Of a stretch of DNA of 32,653 bases, positions 1-14,301 are shown one piece after another. Under the pieces are notes generated by a model. It had not been told where the DNA came from and did no database searches. It saw only the letters and a list, made by a program, of their open reading frames with translations. The stretch is taken from IMG/VR virus record IMGVR_UViG_2541047739_000007; one strand, written 5' to 3'. The stretch is from a virus (taxonomy: Duplodnaviria > Heunggongvirae > Uroviricota > Caudoviricetes). Positions within the stretch are counted from its first letter, which is position 1. Each line of letters starts with the position of its first letter. The translations under genes were made by a program, and so were the position numbers.

Positions 1-1164
1 TTACGCCTTCTTTATATCCTCCATAATTCCACAGTGGGACATATTTGGGACATTATCACCAAAAATGTCGTCTATTTTCCTTGCATGCTCTGTCAAATGA
101 TTAGGCGCAAGGTGAGCATACCTACGAACCATTTCTATGGACTCCCATCCGCCCATTTCCTGAAGCACAGATAATGGGACGCCTGACTGGATCAGCCAGC
201 TTGCCCAGGTGTGTCTGAGGTCATGGAAACGGAAATCTTCAATTCCTGCACGACGACAAGCTGATAGCCATGATGTCTTGCTGTCGATGCGCATCTTCCT
301 GACCGCAGGCGTTGATGTTCCATCTGCTCGCTTAGTCGCCTTGGTATGTACAAACACCCATTTGTGATGCTTGCCTATTTGATCACGCAACACTTTACAG
401 GCGGTATCGTTCAGCGCCACACCAATGGCGCGGTTTGATTTGCTCTCTTCTGGATTCACCCAGGCAACTCGTCGCTGCATGTCGATTTGTTGCCATTCCA
501 GATTTATGATGTTCGACTTTCTCAGACCAGTTGCCAGCGCAAACTTGACGACAGATTTCAGTGGTTCGGGGCACTCATCAATAAGGCGTTTTGCTTCCTC
601 CTTTTCCAGCCATCTGACTCGCTTGTTTCTGACCGCTGGTATCTTGATGACAGGCGCTTTTTCCAGCCACTTCCAGTCGCGTTCTGCAGCACGGAGAATG
701 GCCTTTATCATGGCAAGATGCTTTGCCTTTGTCTGAGTTGATACTGGCTTTGGTTCATAAACAGGCGGTTCTTTACCTTTCCTGATGGCGGCCTGAACTT
801 TCTGTTTCCATATTTCTTTCGTCTTTCTGTTATGCATTCTGCTTACAGCAGAGTAAATCTTTGCCTCCGAGATATCTTTAAGCCTTATACCCTCAAAATG
901 TTCAAGCCAGAACTCAATCCGGCTTTTATCTGAATCGAGAGATTTTTTATCAGCTTTTTCCTCAAGCCATCTTAGGCAGGCCTCTTCAAAAGTGACATCA
1001 GGTAAATCCCCTAGCTTTTCTACTCGCCAGAGTTCTGCTTTTCGCTTGTCGTGCAACTCCTGAGCTTGCCGCTTGTCCTTTGTGCCAAGAGATTCCTTAA
1101 TTCGTTTCCCGCCCGGGAGCGAATACGAGGCATACCATATTTCATTTCTGCGGAAGAGTGACAT
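1..1164 (-). CDS. int: Tyrosine site-specific integrase, P22/lambdoid type
   Basis: 387-aa ORF; N-terminus [34 protein letters not shown] resembles P22-family integrases; C-terminal HDLRHT...RYAHL tyrosine-recombinase signature; window begins at its stop codon, so att lies left of the window. Confidence 0.9.
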
Positions 1165-2967: not shown

Positions 2968-3243
2968 GTGGCTTCTGTTTCTATCAGCTGTCCCTCCTGT
3001 TCAGCTACTGACGGGGTGGTGCGTAACGGCAAAAGCACCGCCGGACATCAGCGCTATCTCTGCTCTCACTGCCGTAAAACATGGCAACTGCAGTTCACTT
3101 ACACCGCTTCTCAACCCGGTACGCACCAGAAAATCATTGATATGGCCATGAATGGCGTTGGATGCCGGGCAACAGCCCGCATTATGGGCGTTGGCCTCAA
3201 CACGATTTTACGTCACTTAAAAAACTCAGGCCGCAGTCGGTAA
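2968..3243 (+). CDS. insA: IS1 InsA (transposition inhibitor / N-terminal part of transposase)
   Basis: 91-aa [46 protein letters not shown]... recognised as IS1 InsA. Confidence 0.95.
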
Positions 3244-3665
3244 CCTCGCGCATACAGCCGGGCAGTGACGTCATCGTCTGCGCGGAAATGGACGAACAGT
3301 GGGGCTATGTCGGGGCTAAATCGCGCCAGCGCTGGCTGTTTTACGCGTATGACAGGCTCCGGAAGACGGTTGTTGCGCACGTATTCGGTGAACGCACTAT
3401 GGCGACGCTGGGGCGTCTTATGAGCCTGCTGTCACCCTTTGACGTGGTGATATGGATGACGGATGGCTGGCCGCTGTATGAATCCCGCCTGAAGGGAAAG
3501 CTGCACGTAATCAGCAAGCGATATACGCAGCGAATTGAGCGGCATAACCTGAATCTGAGGCAGCACCTGGCACGGCTGGGACGGAAGTCGCTGTCGTTCT
3601 CAAAATCGGTGGAGCTGCATGACAAAGTCATCGGGCATTATCTGAACATAAAACACTATCAATAA
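3162..3665 (+). CDS. insB: IS1 InsB reading frame (expressed as InsAB' transposase via -1 frameshift at A6C, 3219-3225)
   Basis: 167-aa frame ...[28 protein letters not shown]... recognised as IS1 InsB; TTAAAAAAC slippery run present. Confidence 0.95.
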
Positions 3666-4742: not shown

Positions 4743-4791
4743 TTTGCTGCTCCTCATCATATCGACCCTGCAAGGTCGGTTGGTTTCTCCA

Positions 4792-4878: not shown

Positions 4879-4888
4879 CAAAAAAGGA

Positions 4889-4925
4889 CGGTACCAGCCG
4901 GAAGCAAGGGTACAAACTGGTACCG
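4889..4925. promoter_or_regulatory. 9-bp perfect inverted repeat CGGTACCAG / CTGGTACCG with 19-nt loop containing GGTACAAA; candidate leftward operator (oL-like) or RNA hairpin
   Basis: Arms 4889-4897 and 4917-4925; shares the GGTACA core with the palindrome between cI and cro. Confidence 0.4.
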
Positions 4926-5942: not shown

Positions 5943-6617
5943 TTAGGCTTTGATTTTGTATCTTCTTGGTTTTCCTGAGAAAATCACAGTTCCAATTATA
6001 GAGCAATTACCGTTGATCTTAATGTAAGGCTCAGGCCAGTTTGGGTTTAACGCTTTGAGATAACGCTGTGTCCCATCTTCTATCAACCTTTTGAAGGTGG
6101 TTTCACCTGTATCGTGCATCAATGCAATAACGTCGTCACCGTGGCAGGCAGGTACTTCAGGATCGACAAAAATCATGTCTCCCGGGCGGTACTCATCAAT
6201 CATTGAATCACCTATCACCCGCAAGATATAAGTCATTTCCCCACAGGGTACAGGGCAGGGATACGTTTCTGCTGTGCTCAAATCAACCTCAGAATATCCA
6301 ACTTCTTTCCATGCTCCGGCCTGTACCCATGATATGACAGGGACTAATGTGATTTGTTTATTAGTGATTGAAACATCAGGTTTTTTTGTGATGTTCGTTG
6401 TCTGGTGTTCTTGATCGAGCCATCCGACAGGCAGGTCGAAACATTTTTCGATGTGTCGTGCCATGCTGTCACCGATATTTTTAGTAGCACCATCTCCCAT
6501 AAACCTGCTGGTCTGGGTTGGCTCGCGATCAATCATAGTGGCAAAGGAAGAATTCCCGCCAACACCATCTCTCAGTTTTCTGGCGTTAGACCGCCGGATG
6601 TCATGGATTGTTTTCAT
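5943..6617 (-). CDS. cI: CI-like prophage repressor with C-terminal S24 (LexA-like) self-cleaving peptidase domain
   Basis: 224 aa; C-terminal GDSM serine motif and downstream TFKRL lysine (Ser-Lys dyad); divergent from a cro-like gene. Confidence 0.85.
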   Translation of the reverse strand: MKTIHDIRRSNARKLRDGVGGNSSFATMIDREPTQTSRFMGDGATKNIGDSMARHIEKCFDLPVGWLDQEHQTTNITKKPDVSITNKQITLVPVISWVQAGAWKEVGYSEVDLSTAETYPCPVPCGEMTYILRVIGDSMIDEYRPGDMIFVDPEVPACHGDDVIALMHDTGETTFKRLIEDGTQRYLKALNPNWPEPYIKINGNCSIIGTVIFSGKPRRYKIKA

Positions 6618-9286: not shown

Positions 9287-9939
9287 TGAGTAATAAATAT
9301 TGCCAGGCGCTGGTGGAACTGCGGAACAAACCAGCCCATGAACTGAAGGAAGTGGGCGATCAGTGGCGCACGCCGGACAACATTTTCTGGGGAATTAACA
9401 CCCTGTTTGGCCCGTTTGTTCTGGATCTGTTCACTGACGGTGATAACACCAAATGTGCTGCGTATTACACGGCGGAAGACAACGCGCTGGCGCATGACTG
9501 GTCAGAACGTCTTGCGGAGCTTAAAGGTGCTGCCTTTGGTAATCCCCCATACAGCCGCGCCAGTCAGCATGAGGGGCAATACATCACAGGCATGCGTTAC
9601 ATCATGAAGCATGCCAGTGCCATGCGTGATAAAGGCGGGCGCTATGTTTTCCTGATCAAAGCTGCCACCAGCGAAGTGTGGTGGCCGGAAGATGCAGATC
9701 ATATTGCTTTTATTCGCGGGCGTATTGGTTTTGAACTGCCTGCCTGGTTTATCCCGAAAGATGAGAAGCAGGTGCCGACAGGCGCTTTCTTCGCTGGTGC
9801 TATTGCTGTTTTCGACAAGACCTGGAAGGGACCGGCAATCAGCTACATCGGGCGCGATGAACTTGAGGCATGTGGTGAGGCGTTTCTGGCGCAGGTTCGC
9901 CAGCAGGCGGAAAAACTGGTCAGGGAGATGGCGGCATGA
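9286..9939 (+). CDS. Phage N6-adenine DNA methyltransferase (Dam-like)
   Basis: Start MSNKYCQAL coupled to the upstream stop; catalytic GNPPYS (NPPY) motif. Confidence 0.8.
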   Translation: MSNKYCQALVELRNKPAHELKEVGDQWRTPDNIFWGINTLFGPFVLDLFTDGDNTKCAAYYTAEDNALAHDWSERLAELKGAAFGNPPYSRASQHEGQYITGMRYIMKHASAMRDKGGRYVFLIKAATSEVWWPEDADHIAFIRGRIGFELPAWFIPKDEKQVPTGAFFAGAIAVFDKTWKGPAISYIGRDELEACGEAFLAQVRQQAEKLVREMAA

Positions 9940-10262
9940 CGACGTTAACTCAATGCCAGCAGCAGGTGCTGGATATGCTGATTTCTTATCAGAAAGAACG
10001 TGGCTTCCCGCCAACCAATCAGGAGGTGGCAACCATGCTGGGATACCGTTCAGTGAATGCAGCGGTGGAGCATCTTCGCGCACTGGAGAAAAAAGGCGTC
10101 ATCACGATAAAGCGTGGTGTGGCCCGGGGGATCACGCTTCATACCGTGGTGAAGGACGACGACAGCGAGGCGGTCGGGATTATCCGCTCACTGCTTGCCG
10201 GTGAGGAAAACGCCAGGCTGCGTGCAGCCCACTGGTTACATGAGAGGGGCCTGAAAGTATGA
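9936..10262 (+). CDS. LexA DNA-binding-domain-only protein (no S24 peptidase domain)
   Basis: 108 aa; MTTLTQCQQQVLDML...GFPPTNQEVATMLGYRSVNAAVEHLRALEKKGVITIKRGVARGITL aligns along its length with the LexA N-terminal winged-helix domain; the ORF ends before any peptidase domain. Confidence 0.7.
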   Translation: MTTLTQCQQQVLDMLISYQKERGFPPTNQEVATMLGYRSVNAAVEHLRALEKKGVITIKRGVARGITLHTVVKDDDSEAVGIIRSLLAGEENARLRAAHWLHERGLKV

Positions 10263-10654
10263 AGTTGATCCTACCTTTTCCGCCCAGCGTGAACACGTAC
10301 TGGCGACACCCCAACAAAGGGGCGTTTGCTGGTAAGAGCCTGATAAGCGCGGCGGGGCGAAAATTCCAGAGCGCGGCGTGTGCAGCAATAGTTGAGCAGT
10401 TACGTCGTCTGCCGAAACCAACGTCGGCACCTGCTTCAGTGGAGATCGTGTTGTTTCCTCCGGATAACCGGATCCGCGATCTGGACAACTATAACAAGGC
10501 GCTGTTTGACGCCCTGACCCACGCGGGTGTGTGGGAAGACGACAGTCAGGTGAAAAGAATGCTGGTGGAGTGGGGACCGGTTATCCCGGAGGGGAAGGTC
10601 GAGATCACTATCAGTAAGTACGAAAAAGCGAGTTGCAAATTAGCAACTCGGTAA
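10259..10654 (+). CDS. rusA: Holliday-junction resolvase RusA
   Basis: 131 aa; PPSVNTYWRH...DLDNYNKALFDALT motifs characteristic of RusA. Confidence 0.85.
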   Translation: MKLILPFPPSVNTYWRHPNKGAFAGKSLISAAGRKFQSAACAAIVEQLRRLPKPTSAPASVEIVLFPPDNRIRDLDNYNKALFDALTHAGVWEDDSQVKRMLVEWGPVIPEGKVEITISKYEKASCKLATR

Positions 10655-10699
10655 CGGAATTGAGCAACACCCTAAATTTGGGTATTACCTCGTTAAAGA

Positions 10700-10719
10700 T
10701 ACTGTATTTATGAACAGTG
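10700..10719. promoter_or_regulatory. Candidate LexA (SOS) box TACTGTATTTATGAACAGTG
   Basis: CTG-N10-CAG with AT-rich centre; close to consensus TACTGTATATATATACAGTA; in the 160-bp gap upstream of the KilA-N gene. Confidence 0.65.
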
Positions 10720-10816
10720 TATCCTTGATAACTATTAAAAATCGCAGTAAGTTCATCCTGCATCAACGAAAAGGGAGTGCAGTCCCGCTCGTGGATAAAA
10801 ATTTGTGGAGAAACCA

Positions 10817-11632
10817 ATGAATCAGTTGCTTGTAATTGATGGCGTTTCTGTGCGCCAGTACTTCGAATCTAACTACTGTCTTAACGACCTTCAGAAAGCA
10901 GCTCTTCTTGCCGCTGGTGAGAATCGCTCCTCCCGTTCGCTGGAAGTTCACGAGTTTATGCGTCGTCCTGAAACGAAGGCTCTTGTGGAATTATTGGAAG
11001 AAGAAACTACGGGAGATTCCCGTAGTATTCCTGTCATCACCATTCAGGGGCGCAATGGTGGGACGTATGTCTGTAAAGAGCTGGTCTATGCATATGCAAT
11101 GTGGATCAGCCCGGCATTCAGCTTAAAAGTGATACGTACTTTTGATGCGCTTCATAATTCATCACCAGAAGAAACCACATCCGACAAAATTAAATCCGGG
11201 GTCATTCTGCTTGAATCAGCAGCAAAGACTCTAAATCTGTCAAACTCCTCGAAACTTGGTGCATACCAGAAATTATCAAAGGTAGCTGGTCTTCCTGAAC
11301 TTATGCCGATCTATGCCATTGATGCACCTGCTGATGCGCCAGATGGTTCAAGCCGCCCTACGCTGTCGCTGAGTGCACTGCTGAAGCAGTATGGTATCCG
11401 CCTGACGGCTAATCAGGCATATCACCAGATGGCGAAGCTGGGGATCGTTGAACAACGCGAACGATACAGCCGTACCGCGATTAACAACATCAAAAAATTC
11501 TGGTCGCTGACCGCGAAAGGCTGCATGTTCGGCAAGAACATCACCAGTCCTGCAAATCCGCGCGAGACGCAGCCGCATTTCTTCGAATCCCGATTTCCTG
11601 AGCTGTTAAAGCTGCTCGATACCGTTCATTGA
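10817..11632 (+). CDS. KilA-N domain protein (candidate SOS-controlled antirepressor)
   Basis: Start MNQLLVIDGV with GGAGA SD; KilA-N/APSES-like core (GGTYVCKELVYAYAMWISPAFSLKVIRTFD); about 272 aa. Confidence 0.65.
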   Translation: MNQLLVIDGVSVRQYFESNYCLNDLQKAALLAAGENRSSRSLEVHEFMRRPETKALVELLEEETTGDSRSIPVITIQGRNGGTYVCKELVYAYAMWISPAFSLKVIRTFDALHNSSPEETTSDKIKSGVILLESAAKTLNLSNSSKLGAYQKLSKVAGLPELMPIYAIDAPADAPDGSSRPTLSLSALLKQYGIRLTANQAYHQMAKLGIVEQRERYSRTAINNIKKFWSLTAKGCMFGKNITSPANPRETQPHFFESRFPELLKLLDTVH

Positions 11633-11633
11633 G

Positions 11634-12629
11634 GTGACCGTGAGAGCACTACTGACCCCTGAAATTGCCCCGCGTATGGGGATCGTATTGTTCAGGCCAG
11701 GTTCAGAGCTGATGCCCCTGTTTATGCAGGGGCGTGTCCTGCTGGAGCCTGAGCCGGAGCGTTATTCATCTTTCGCCAGTGGTGCCGTTCCGGCGGCATC
11801 ACAACCGCTGGCGGATGATCCTGCCGTTCGGGCCGTGTTCCGCCATGAGGCAGTGATCCGTCGTGCTGGTGGCGTGGAATGTCTTGAAAGCTGGTTACTT
11901 CGTGAAAAAGGCTGCCAGTGGCCTCATTCCGGATGGCACAGCGAGAACATGACCACAATGCGACACGCTCCGGGTGCAATCCGTCTGTGCTGGCACTGCG
12001 ATAACCAGCTGCGCGATCAGTTCACGGAACGGCTGGAATCAATGGCAACGGATAACTGTGCCCGCTGGGTGTTGTCTGTTGTGCGTCGGGATCTCGGTTT
12101 TGATGACAGTCACGTTGTGACAATGCCGGAACTGTGCTGGTGGCTGATTCGTAATGACCTGGCGGATGCCTTACCGGAAAGTGCAGCCCGTAAGGCACTG
12201 AGATTACCGAAGCCTGTTGTGCCGTCTGTCACCCGGGAAAGTGACCTTGTGCCTTCGGTTCCTGCCACCAGCATCATCCAGGATAAAGCGAAAAAGGTGC
12301 TGGCGCTGAAAGTGGATCCGGAGTCGCCGGAGTCTTTTATGTTACGCCCAAAACGTCGCCGCTGGGTTAATGAAAAGTACACGCGCTGGGTTAAGACGCA
12401 GCCGTGCGCATGTTGTGGAAAGCCTGCTGATGATCCCCACCACCTGATAGGCCACGGTCAGGGGGGAATGGGTACAAAAGCGCATGACCTCTTCGTGTTG
12501 CCTTTGTGCAGAAAGCATCACGACGAGCTGCATGCGGATACCGTGGCATTTGAAGAGAAGTATGGCTCCCAGCTGGAGCTGATATTTCGTTTTATCGATC
12601 GCGCACTGGCGATTGGTGTGCTGGCCTGA
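11634..12629 (+). CDS. DUF968-like protein with C-terminal HNH-like Cys/His motif
   Basis: 331-aa ORF (GTG start); C-terminus [18 protein letters not shown]...[10 protein letters not shown]. Confidence 0.55.
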
Positions 12630-12646
12630 TTTTGTGGAGAAAGTTA

Positions 12647-13030
12647 ATGCGTGATATTCAGATGGTTCTTGAACGTTGGGGAGCGTGGGCGGCTAATAAT
12701 CATGAAGATGTGACCTGGTCGTCCATTGCCGCCGGTTTTAAGGGATTAATTCCTTCAAAAGTAAAATCTCGCCCGCAATGTTGTGACGATGACGCGATGA
12801 TCATTTGCGGGTGCATGGCCCGTCTGAAAAAGAACAACAGCGATTTACACGATTTATTAGTAGATTATTATGTATGTGGTATGACATTCATGTCACTGGC
12901 AAGTAAGCATTGCTGCTCGGATGGTTATATCGGGAAAAGGTTACAGAAGGCTGAGGGCATAATTGAAGGGATGTTAATGGCATTAGATATCCGGTTAGAT
13001 ATGGATATCGTTGCTAATAATTCTAATTGA
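12647..13030 (+). CDS. Late-gene antiterminator, Q-like
   Basis: Start [11 protein letters not shown] with GGAGA SD; Cys-rich ([12 protein letters not shown]); position between nin-type genes and the lysis cassette. Confidence 0.55.
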
Positions 13031-13049: not shown

Positions 13050-13080
13050 AGTTATTAAAAATGGGGCGTGGAAACGCCCC
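13050..13080 (-). terminator. Candidate intrinsic terminator, minus strand, downstream of the porin gene
   Basis: GGGGCGT-GGAA-ACGCCCC hairpin followed on the minus strand by AUUUUUAAU. Confidence 0.4.
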
Positions 13081-13218: not shown

Positions 13219-14301
13219 TTAGAACTGATAAACCAGACCTACAGCGACGATGTCGTCGGTATCAATACCAGCTGTTTTGGTAAACTTACTATCGTCAATT
13301 AAGTTGATTTTGTAATCAACAAAAGTGGACATGTTTTTATTAAAGTAGTAAGTAGCACCGACATCGACATACTTGACTAAGTCTCGGTCACCATGAACAC
13401 CAAGGTCTTTACCTTTTGACTGAAGGTAAGCAACAGATGGACGCAGACCGAAGTCAAACTGATATTGTGCTACTGCTTCAAAGTTTTGTGCTTTGTTTGC
13501 AATATGGTTATTACCAAAAACGGTCATATTCTGAGTTTCAGAATATGTGGTAGCCAGATAGATATTGTTCGCATCATATTTCAGGCCTGCAGCCCATACT
13601 TCCGCATTTTTGCCGGAGGCATTGAATTTGCTCTTACCATAGGCGACCTGACCGTCAGTGCGATCTGATTTAGCATAGGTTGCACCCACGCCGAATCCTT
13701 CATACTCATAAGTAGTGGAGAAACCGAAACCATCACCATTGGCTTCAGTTACGTCAGTGCGGTCATTTTTACCCTGATACTGAGCAGCAAAGTTCAGGCC
13801 ATCGACCAGACCAAAGAAGTCGTTGTTACGATAAGTTGCAACACCAGTAGTGCGACCAGTCATGAACACATCTGTTTGGGTCCAGGTATCACCACCGAAT
13901 TCTGGCAGGACGTCAGTCCACGCACCGATGTCGTATGCTACACCGTAGTTACGGCCGTAATCGATTGAGCCGTAATCACCAAATTTCAGGCCTGCAAATG
14001 CAAGACGGGTTTTGTCTTTGGAAGAACCTTGAGATTCAGCACGGTTGCCTTTGAATTCATATTCCCACTGACCGAAACCAGTCAGTTGATCGTTGATTTG
14101 GGTTTCACCTTTGAAGCCAAGACGGGCATAAGTAGTATCACCATCATCTGCATCATTAGAGGAGAAGTAGTGCTTGGCATTAACTTTCCCGTATAGATCC
14201 AGCTTGTTACTGTCTTTATTATAAATTTCAGCTGCCTGAGCAGACATCGCCATCAGTACTGATGCAGCTACAGCAGAAATTGCCACTGTTAATTTTTTCA
14301 T
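13219..14301 (-). CDS. nmpC: OmpC/OmpF-family outer-membrane porin (prophage-borne NmpC/Lc type)
   Basis: 360 aa; signal peptide [23 protein letters not shown]; porin C-terminus ...VGLVYQF; on the opposite strand between Q and the lysis genes. Confidence 0.9.

Follow-up and report, generated by a model that had tools for sequence, protein, structure and literature searches.

Gene context of the locus

The window, i.e. the whole stretch of 32,653 nt that was analysed, is a lambda-like (lambdoid) E. coli prophage. Its left part comprises the integrase gene (1-1164, minus strand), the gene of a CI-like repressor, a cII-like gene, replication genes, PerC and Dam, and its middle part a gene encoding a LexA DNA-binding domain only, rusA, an intergenic gap, kilA-N, a DUF968/HNH gene and the antiterminator gene Q (Table 1). 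To the right of Q, a porin gene on the opposite strand is followed by the lysis and morphogenesis genes. This OmpC/NmpC-like gene (13219-14301, minus strand), found together with a strong terminator on the same strand (13063-13080), sits between Q and the lysis genes, as in DLP12. Besides, an IS1 transposase ORF (3162-3665) is inserted in the early-left region.

The gap ahead of kilA-N, put at about 160 bp in an earlier note on this DNA, measures 162 bp between the rusA stop codon (10654) and the kilA-N ATG (10817). GGAG is found 6 nt before this ATG, the mechanical ORF beginning at GTG 10805, and the protein counts 271 aa rather than the 272 of the earlier note, the KilA-N domain itself being borne out (Pfam E=1.3e-15). 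The order kilA-N, DUF968, antiterminator is kept across genera. On the plus strand, no convincing terminator was found from 10760 to 13030, where weak terminator-like matches lie inside coding sequence only. As the three genes are contiguous and free of such a terminator, LexA acting ahead of kilA-N would probably gate all of them and, judging from the gene spacing, transcription starting at about 10760 would be expected to reach Q. The ATG of Q is preceded by the motif GTGGAGAAA, which resembles the one ahead of kilA-N; the motif TTTGTGGAGAAA recurs at 10802-10813 (before kilA-N), at 12631-12642 (before Q) and, on the minus strand, at 4778-4790 in the early-left leader.

Regarding the CI-like repressor, the S24 autocleavage domain previously ascribed to it is present, with the motifs QAG/AW (Ala-Gly site), GDSM and FKRL (Ser/Lys motifs). 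A cleavable repressor of the S24 type makes the existence of two SOS inputs plausible.

Table 1. Coordinates of the features discussed, in the window unless another sequence is named
Feature	Position	Strand	Basis or remark
CI-like repressor, the other proposed SOS input	5943..6617	-	Peptidase_S24 E=1.5e-26
Truncated LexA homologue, DNA-binding domain only, 108 aa	9936..10262	+	LexA_DNA_bind E=2.9e-19
rusA	10259..10654	+	Last 8 codons within the cassette
Mosaic cassette	10631..11041	+	Last rusA codons, operator, promoter, first ~75 kilA-N codons
Predicted SOS box (LexA operator) TACTGTATTTATGAACAGTG	10700..10719	.	Heterology index, rarity, conservation
Predicted -35 TTGATA	10725..10730	+	5 bp past the box; TTGAAA/TTGATA/TTGCTA 4-5 bp after the palindrome in nine genera
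Predicted -10 TAAGTT	10748..10753	+	17-bp spacer; TAAGTT/TAATGT/TAAGGT/TAAAAT at a constant 17-18 bp
5'-UTR hairpin GGGA-GUGCAG-UCCC	10773..10786	+	Conserved loop, covarying stems
kilA-N, 271 aa	10817..11632	+	KilA-N/APSES-like 1-113, helical linker, winged-helix-like C-terminal part 181-266 (moderate-confidence model)
DUF968/HNHc_6 gene (nuclease-like)	11634..12629	+	Start 2-8 nt past the kilA-N stop
Antiterminator Q (Phage_antitermQ)	12647..13030	+	ATG 18 nt past the DUF968 stop
Strong SOS boxes in relatives	L105 (SfV) 34170; L106 (mEp460) 41021, 23255, 23283, 31970; L097 (O104:H4 C227-11) 13436, 3827
Further strong SOS boxes in relatives	L020 6156; L035 5951; L009 5520

The candidate LexA operator

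The 20-mer formerly proposed as an SOS box, TACTGTATTTATGAACAGTG, was recovered exactly at 10700-10719, in the gap between rusA and kilA-N, where CTGTATTTATGAACAG presents the palindrome CTGT-N8-ACAG with an AT-rich spacer. Compared with the consensus TACTGTATATATATACAGTA, it has four mismatches, i.e. 16 matching positions out of 20, with TA flanks, and a search at three mismatches or fewer returned no match. CTGT-N8-ACAG occurs in only two copies in the window, the second being a poor SOS box.

The quality of the site was expressed as the heterology index (HI), for which 31 E. coli operators were assembled into a frequency matrix of LexA sites that yields approximate values. With this matrix, the HI of the box amounts to 5.0-5.8, comparable to those of the recA and lexA operators (5.2-5.6 for recA), against 9.4-9.9 for the weak but real box of dinG. 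A binding threshold of about 12.6 was reportedly put forward by Fernandez de Henestrosa and co-workers in 2000, and the box falls under this value, absolute HI being approximate. Across all 32.6 kb the next best site reaches an HI of 11.5, the probability of HI<=5.3 is 1e-8 to 6e-8 per position by exact convolution, and 0.0004-0.002 sites this good are expected by chance per window. The site at 10700-10719 is thus confirmed to be far beyond chance. In Shigella phage SfIV and strain AZ187, the box takes the form TACTGTATTTATGAACAGTA, with an HI of 4.2. Literature searches returned no report of LexA binding, start site or expression for the kilA-N gap locus.

The predicted promoter

A sigma-70-like promoter, TTGATA-17-TAAGTT, is predicted from the sequence next to the box, with a start near 10760 that would place the centre of the box near -50.5. 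A stringent promoter scan reported no promoter in the gap (TTGATA/TAAGTT has 8 of 12 matches), and it was through the comparison of homologous regions only that this one was recognised. In the window the box adjoins the -35 hexamer with a 5-bp gap, an overlap with -35 or -10 being limited to more distant relatives. Most E. coli LexA operators overlap -35, -10 or +1, so that a box centred at about -50.5 and lying wholly upstream of -35 is unusual for LexA repression. The weakness of the -10 hexamer TAAGTT also speaks against a LexA-gated promoter.

Other transcriptional arrangements of the gap were considered and rejected. The alternative promoter TTGAGC-17-TATTAC, found by eye at 10660-10688, would place the box at +6 to +25; its -10 is without the final T and the space is rusA coding sequence in other genera. 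Just 5' of the rusA stop codon (10652-10654), a hairpin CGAGTTGC-AAATTA-GCAACTCG (10629-10650), seen in this allele only, has its T-run on the minus strand only and therefore looks like a terminator for leftward transcription. A leftward transcript of the gap ending there was nevertheless dropped, since no plausible leftward promoter was found by eye and the hairpin is allele-specific. The 68-aa minus-strand ORF at 10611-10817 is mechanical.

Comparison across relatives

The comparison set was obtained from a scan with one genome per species, which gave 80 loci, and six closer relatives were added. Full-length homologues fell into 20 with a long gap (>=60 bp) and 16 with essentially no gap, the best SOS-like site being taken in the 350 bp upstream of each. 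The median HI is 12.3 for the long-gap loci, 12 of 20 scoring at 12.6 or lower, vs. 22.7 for the no-gap loci, none of 16 doing so (Mann-Whitney p=2e-6). The no-gap relatives, namely mEp460, cdtI, SfII, SfV, the Stx2a and Stx2c phages, Salmonella phage 118970_sal3 and prophages of Morganella and Proteus, have a KilA-N homologue (53-70% identical) that begins 16-21 bp past rusA, with neither a gap nor an SOS-like site or promoter.

In nine genera, i.e. Escherichia, Kluyvera, Kosakonia, Enterobacter, Superficieibacter, Atlantibacter, Phytobacter, Raoultella and Citrobacter, the layout is fixed: palindrome, 4-5 bp, TTGAAA/TTGATA/TTGCTA, 17-18 bp, TAAGTT/TAATGT/TAAGGT/TAAAAT, about 20 nt, hairpin, GTGGAGAA and ATG. 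A Klebsiella phage and a Leclercia locus display this same layout. In Pantoea and Rosenbergiella, the -35 falls within the SOS-like palindrome (GTTACA-17-TATAKT), and in Erwinia, Rahnella and Serratia the -10 does (e.g. TTGCCA-17-TATATT). A palindrome always tied to a promoter in a register that varies suits a repressor operator. Of note, the palindrome is missing from the Citrobacter farmeri relative, which, with a protein 80% identical, is among the two closest that were examined from another genus.

CTG is found in both half-sites in only about 8 of the 20 versions, many others combining a GTGG or TTGT left half with an invariant CAG right half. Such left-variant boxes resemble those of dinG and colicin E1, which are natural but weak. 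Against the LexA reading, the GTG or TTG left half-sites of many other genera have HI of 9-16 and are poor for LexA, the E. coli version being the best LexA site among the compared set.

A mosaic cassette

Relative to mEp460 and SfII, the window is 97-98% identical over 9901-10630 and 91-92% identical over 11042-12641, and the 410 bp between those flanks have no nucleotide similarity to either phage. The C-terminal ~100 residues of the KilA-N protein are nearly identical between the alleles and the N-terminal KilA-N domain differs. Operator, promoter and the opening ~75 codons of kilA-N therefore make up a single mosaic cassette. Escherichia phage PhiR49_1 and Shigella phage SfIV match the rusA-kilA-N segment at 99-100% identity. 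Among 5426 complete E. coli genomes, 186 (3.4%) carry this segment, and in 178 of these the 44 bp covering the box and -35 are identical; an intergenic variant of only 88% identity keeps the box core unaltered. The carriers include strains of O104:H4, O157:H7, O111 and O103 in addition to SfIV. In O157:H7 FRIK944 and O104:H4 C227-11, where the cassette lies in lambdoid prophages, no stx is annotated downstream of Q in the stretch examined.

The KilA-N protein

The N-terminal domain of the KilA-N protein matches a DNA-binding fold, namely Pfam KilA-N (PF04383) above the gathering score, with an APSES-like fold. For its C-terminal part there is no significant match, and in a model of moderate confidence residues 181-266 look winged-helix-like. 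The domain search returned KilA-N only, with no ANT/KilAC, P22_AR_C, DinI-like or other antirepressor-type domain, no solved structure gave a significant sequence match, and PADLOC gave a weak match over the KilA-N core only. It is a multi-domain, probably DNA-binding protein and not a recognisable antirepressor. Database proteins of 401-405 aa (P0066, P0071, P0081, P0082 and others) bring RusA and KilA-N Pfam domains together, presumably because the genes of no-gap alleles were fused or read through when they were called.

The truncated LexA homologue

Two genes upstream of kilA-N, with rusA between, a protein limited to the LexA DNA-binding domain, with LexA_DNA_bind but no S24 domain, does exist. 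It aligns to residues 2-86 of E. coli LexA, about half of residues 2-69 being identical on inspection, and keeps S39, N41, A42, A43, E45, H46, L47 and the R64-G65 wing, which we take to include DNA-contacting residues as seen in the LexA-DNA crystal structure. An LLAGE motif aligns with the VAAGE (Ala84-Gly85) cleavage region and the protein ends about 20 residues later, by which it resembles the N-terminal cleavage product of LexA with a short helical tail. Such homologues are widespread beside rusA in SfV-, SfII-, mEp460- and Stx2-type phages. They occur in phages with and without the kilA-N box and are missing from about 9 of the 20 box-bearing loci, which leaves host LexA as the common factor. 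In addition, the recognition helix of the homologue does not covary with CTG- or GTG-type boxes. Of the earlier suggestion that this protein might modulate the SOS inputs, the homologue itself is real but a specific link to the box was not found. Literature searches returned no experimental study of the truncated LexA homologue or of the conserved RNA hairpin described below.

RNA hairpins and further SOS boxes

In the 5' UTR, 19-45 nt upstream of the kilA-N start, the window and the homologous positions of the relatives (L002-L066) present a hairpin whose loop, (G/U)UGCAG, is invariant and whose stems covary (GGGA/UCCC, GGCGG/CCGCC, GGGC/GCCC, GUCGG/CCGAC and others). Alleles with and without the promoter possess it, and in the no-gap alleles it falls inside the rusA 3' end. 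In Proteus and Morganella, a hairpin in this position has the loop U(G/A)UACGG. At least four closing pairs are formed in 15 of 18 distinct versions and none of 2000 partner shuffles reaches the observed mean. In thermodynamic folding, the 5' UTR does not surpass shuffled sequence (z=0.08), so that covariation is what supports the hairpin; no U-run follows it, and no Rfam family was found for it or for the whole window.

A second such hairpin, CGACC-UUGCAG-GGUCG (4763-4778, minus strand), lies in the early-left operon, with the motif GTGGAGAAACCAA on one side and the orf32-like gene start on the other. Upstream of it come a long structured stretch and a terminator-like hairpin that is strong (~4880-4925, minus strand). 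It has counterparts on the minus strand of SfV (L105, 24635-24654) and mEp460 (L106, 30803-30818). One copy per early operon suggests a shared RNA-level signal, such as a nut-like element, a split ribosome-binding site or a translational operator.

Very strong SOS boxes, with HI of 3.4-5.9, are also found elsewhere in relatives (Table 1). In mEp460, tandem boxes cover the dinI promoter and, in some relatives, a box lies inside a cI-like (XRE/S24) gene. In SfV, mEp460 and prophages of Kluyvera and Rosenbergiella, TACTGTAAAAATAAACAGTG is found 8 nt into a DNA methyltransferase gene downstream of Q, a close variant occurring at the same methyltransferase position in O104:H4. Such boxes suggest, from their sequences, that this phage group routinely uses LexA, for which the LexA box that controls induction downstream of the replication genes of Gifsy phages provides a precedent (PMC3121763).

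Proposed regulation and alternatives

The reading we favour, with a probability of about 0.6, is that LexA gates an internal promoter from which kilA-N, DUF968 and Q are transcribed. This would be a second SOS input beside the cleavable CI, LexA being presumed to occupy the box in vivo. In an undamaged lysogen, CI would hold pR off, and LexA on 10700-10719, directly upstream of -35, would hinder RNA polymerase from about -50, probably because it blocks contacts of the alpha-CTD/UP type and crowds sigma region 4. Upon DNA damage, RecA* would trigger LexA cleavage, the promoter would fire near 10760 and kilA-N would be transcribed, transcription probably running on through DUF968 and Q. The same damage signal would cleave CI, and the inputs would be CI cleavage at pR/pL and LexA release upstream of Q. 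Of the two parallel SOS inputs put forward in the earlier note, the principle is plausible given the strong box and the S24 domain of CI, and the antirepressor route was not retained.

In the antirepressor model that starts from this note, a KilA-N protein made after LexA cleavage would bind and inactivate the CI-like repressor, or that of a co-resident prophage, as a second induction route. The box it calls for is real and is joined to a conserved predicted promoter, LexA-controlled antirepressors are known, namely Tum of 186 and GfoA/GftA of Gifsy phages (PMC3121763), the ant locus of Emek, a P22-like phage, encodes a protein whose KilA-N domain shows 43% identity over 120 aa, and action in trans on non-cognate repressors exists even with a cleavable CI, as for FsoA of Fels-1. 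We nonetheless consider this route quite unlikely. The KilA-N protein is without P22_AR_C, ANT/KilAC or any other known antirepressor domain and has no sequence or domain similarity to antirepressors, its N-terminal domain being of a DNA-binding fold and its C-terminal part without significant match; CI cleaves itself; and most members of the family, with no promoter or box of their own, are ordinary early-right genes. In the literature searched, no paper ties this KilA-N family to antirepression, searches on KilA-N with antirepressor or LexA, on SfIV and on LexA at UP elements having returned nothing usable. It is rather unlikely, too, that the palindrome is mainly bound by the truncated LexA homologue, which, once made from pR after induction, would occupy the vacated box some 50 bp ahead of the start and either activate the weak promoter, boosting Q, or re-repress it in competition with LexA. 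The homologue keeps the LexA recognition-helix and wing residues, the site precedes the -35 of a promoter whose -10 is weak, a position typical of activators, and most GTGG-type loci carry the homologue. GIL01 offers a parallel, its late promoter P3 being repressed by LexA and activated from -43.5 by the truncated homologue gp6 (PMC6182141). Yet the homologue is equally present where the kilA-N box is not and is missing from many box-bearing loci, its recognition helix does not follow the box type, the palindromes of Erwinia, Serratia and Pantoea overlap -10 or -35, which is unsuited to an activator, and activators of class I or class II do not have -50.5 as a standard centre.

LexA could also bind with little effect, the promoter being too weak and kilA-N, DUF968 and Q being expressed essentially from pR. 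The segment is indeed a 410-bp mosaic cassette, no-gap alleles are functional in its absence, and the predicted promoter has a weak -10 and does not include the box in its core. The conservation of the palindrome-promoter architecture over about 20 genera, nine of them with the 4-5 bp spacing, and the identity of box and -35 in nearly all carrier E. coli genomes argue for selection, and this possibility appears very unlikely. As for the LexA-gated promoter, it may be extended to a more elaborate scheme, which is improbable as a whole: release of LexA would fire the promoter ~1.9 kb before Q, and Q would accumulate independently of pR, perhaps before full CI cleavage, the truncated LexA homologue would then re-occupy the operator, tuning or shutting the promoter as well as host SOS genes, and the (G/U)UGCAG hairpin would add RNA-level control. 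Under this scheme, Stx-phage-like prophages of EHEC and EAEC strains bearing the cassette would have their late-gene output wired to LexA as well as CI.

LexA-regulated prophage loci are a known class, chiefly where the phage repressor cannot self-cleave, and no paper describing the present arrangement was found in literature searches. Here, a strong predicted LexA operator is found in a phage with a self-cleaving CI, directly upstream of an operon whose last gene, Q, activates the lysis and virion genes. If this operator works as proposed, the timing and threshold of late gene expression would be set by two SOS sensors with different cleavage kinetics. The arrival of the cassette by mosaic exchange would then be an example of an SOS input added to an existing regulatory circuit.

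Comparison with known systems

As in the E. coli recA, lexA, umuDC and sulA operators, the box presents CTGT-N8-ACAG with an HI in the strong-operator range, the SOS consensus being TACTG(TA)5CAGTA (PMC6590174). Unlike chromosomal SOS operators, it stands 5 bp upstream of -35 and not over -35, -10 or +1.

In Salmonella, Gifsy-1, -2 and -3 possess a LexA-controlled dinI-antirepressor operon (Lemire et al., 2011; PMC3121763). The LexA box and the dedicated promoter, both predicted here, are likewise well downstream of the replication genes and outside the immunity region. However, the Gifsy repressors are non-self-cleaving and, more generally, the cognate repressors of 186 Tum, Gifsy GfoA/GftA/GfhA and N15 AntC are without an autocleavage domain and call for an antirepressor, whereas the present CI has Peptidase_S24. 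The Gifsy operon encodes DinI and a small antirepressor needed for induction; in the present unit, which encodes KilA-N, DUF968 and Q, there is no homologue of GfoA/GftA. Besides, the hairpin preceding the box here does not terminate rightward transcription. With the Emek ant-locus protein and P1 KilA, the protein shares the N-terminal KilA-N domain (43% over 120 aa; ~37% for P1 KilA). Emek Ant combines KilA-N with P22_AR_C, whereas the present protein, devoid of P22_AR_C and KilAC/ANT, has a different and widely shuffled C-terminal domain, and its locus is not of the immI type under Mnt/Arc control.

At the P3 promoter of GIL01, LexA, gp7 and the truncated homologue gp6 come into play, gp6 activating from -43.5 (Fornelos et al., 2018; PMC6182141). 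Both phages encode a protein with a LexA DNA-binding domain only and no S24 domain, and both have a LexA box, predicted in the present case, at a promoter leading to late functions. GIL01 is however a Bacillus tectivirus without CI, as opposed to a CI-type lambdoid phage; its gp6 palindrome at -43.5, GaCACA..TGTGaC, differs, and the homologue in the window is not specifically linked to the box. Finally, the promoter predicted here leads to Q and not, as P3 of GIL01 does, to late genes directly.
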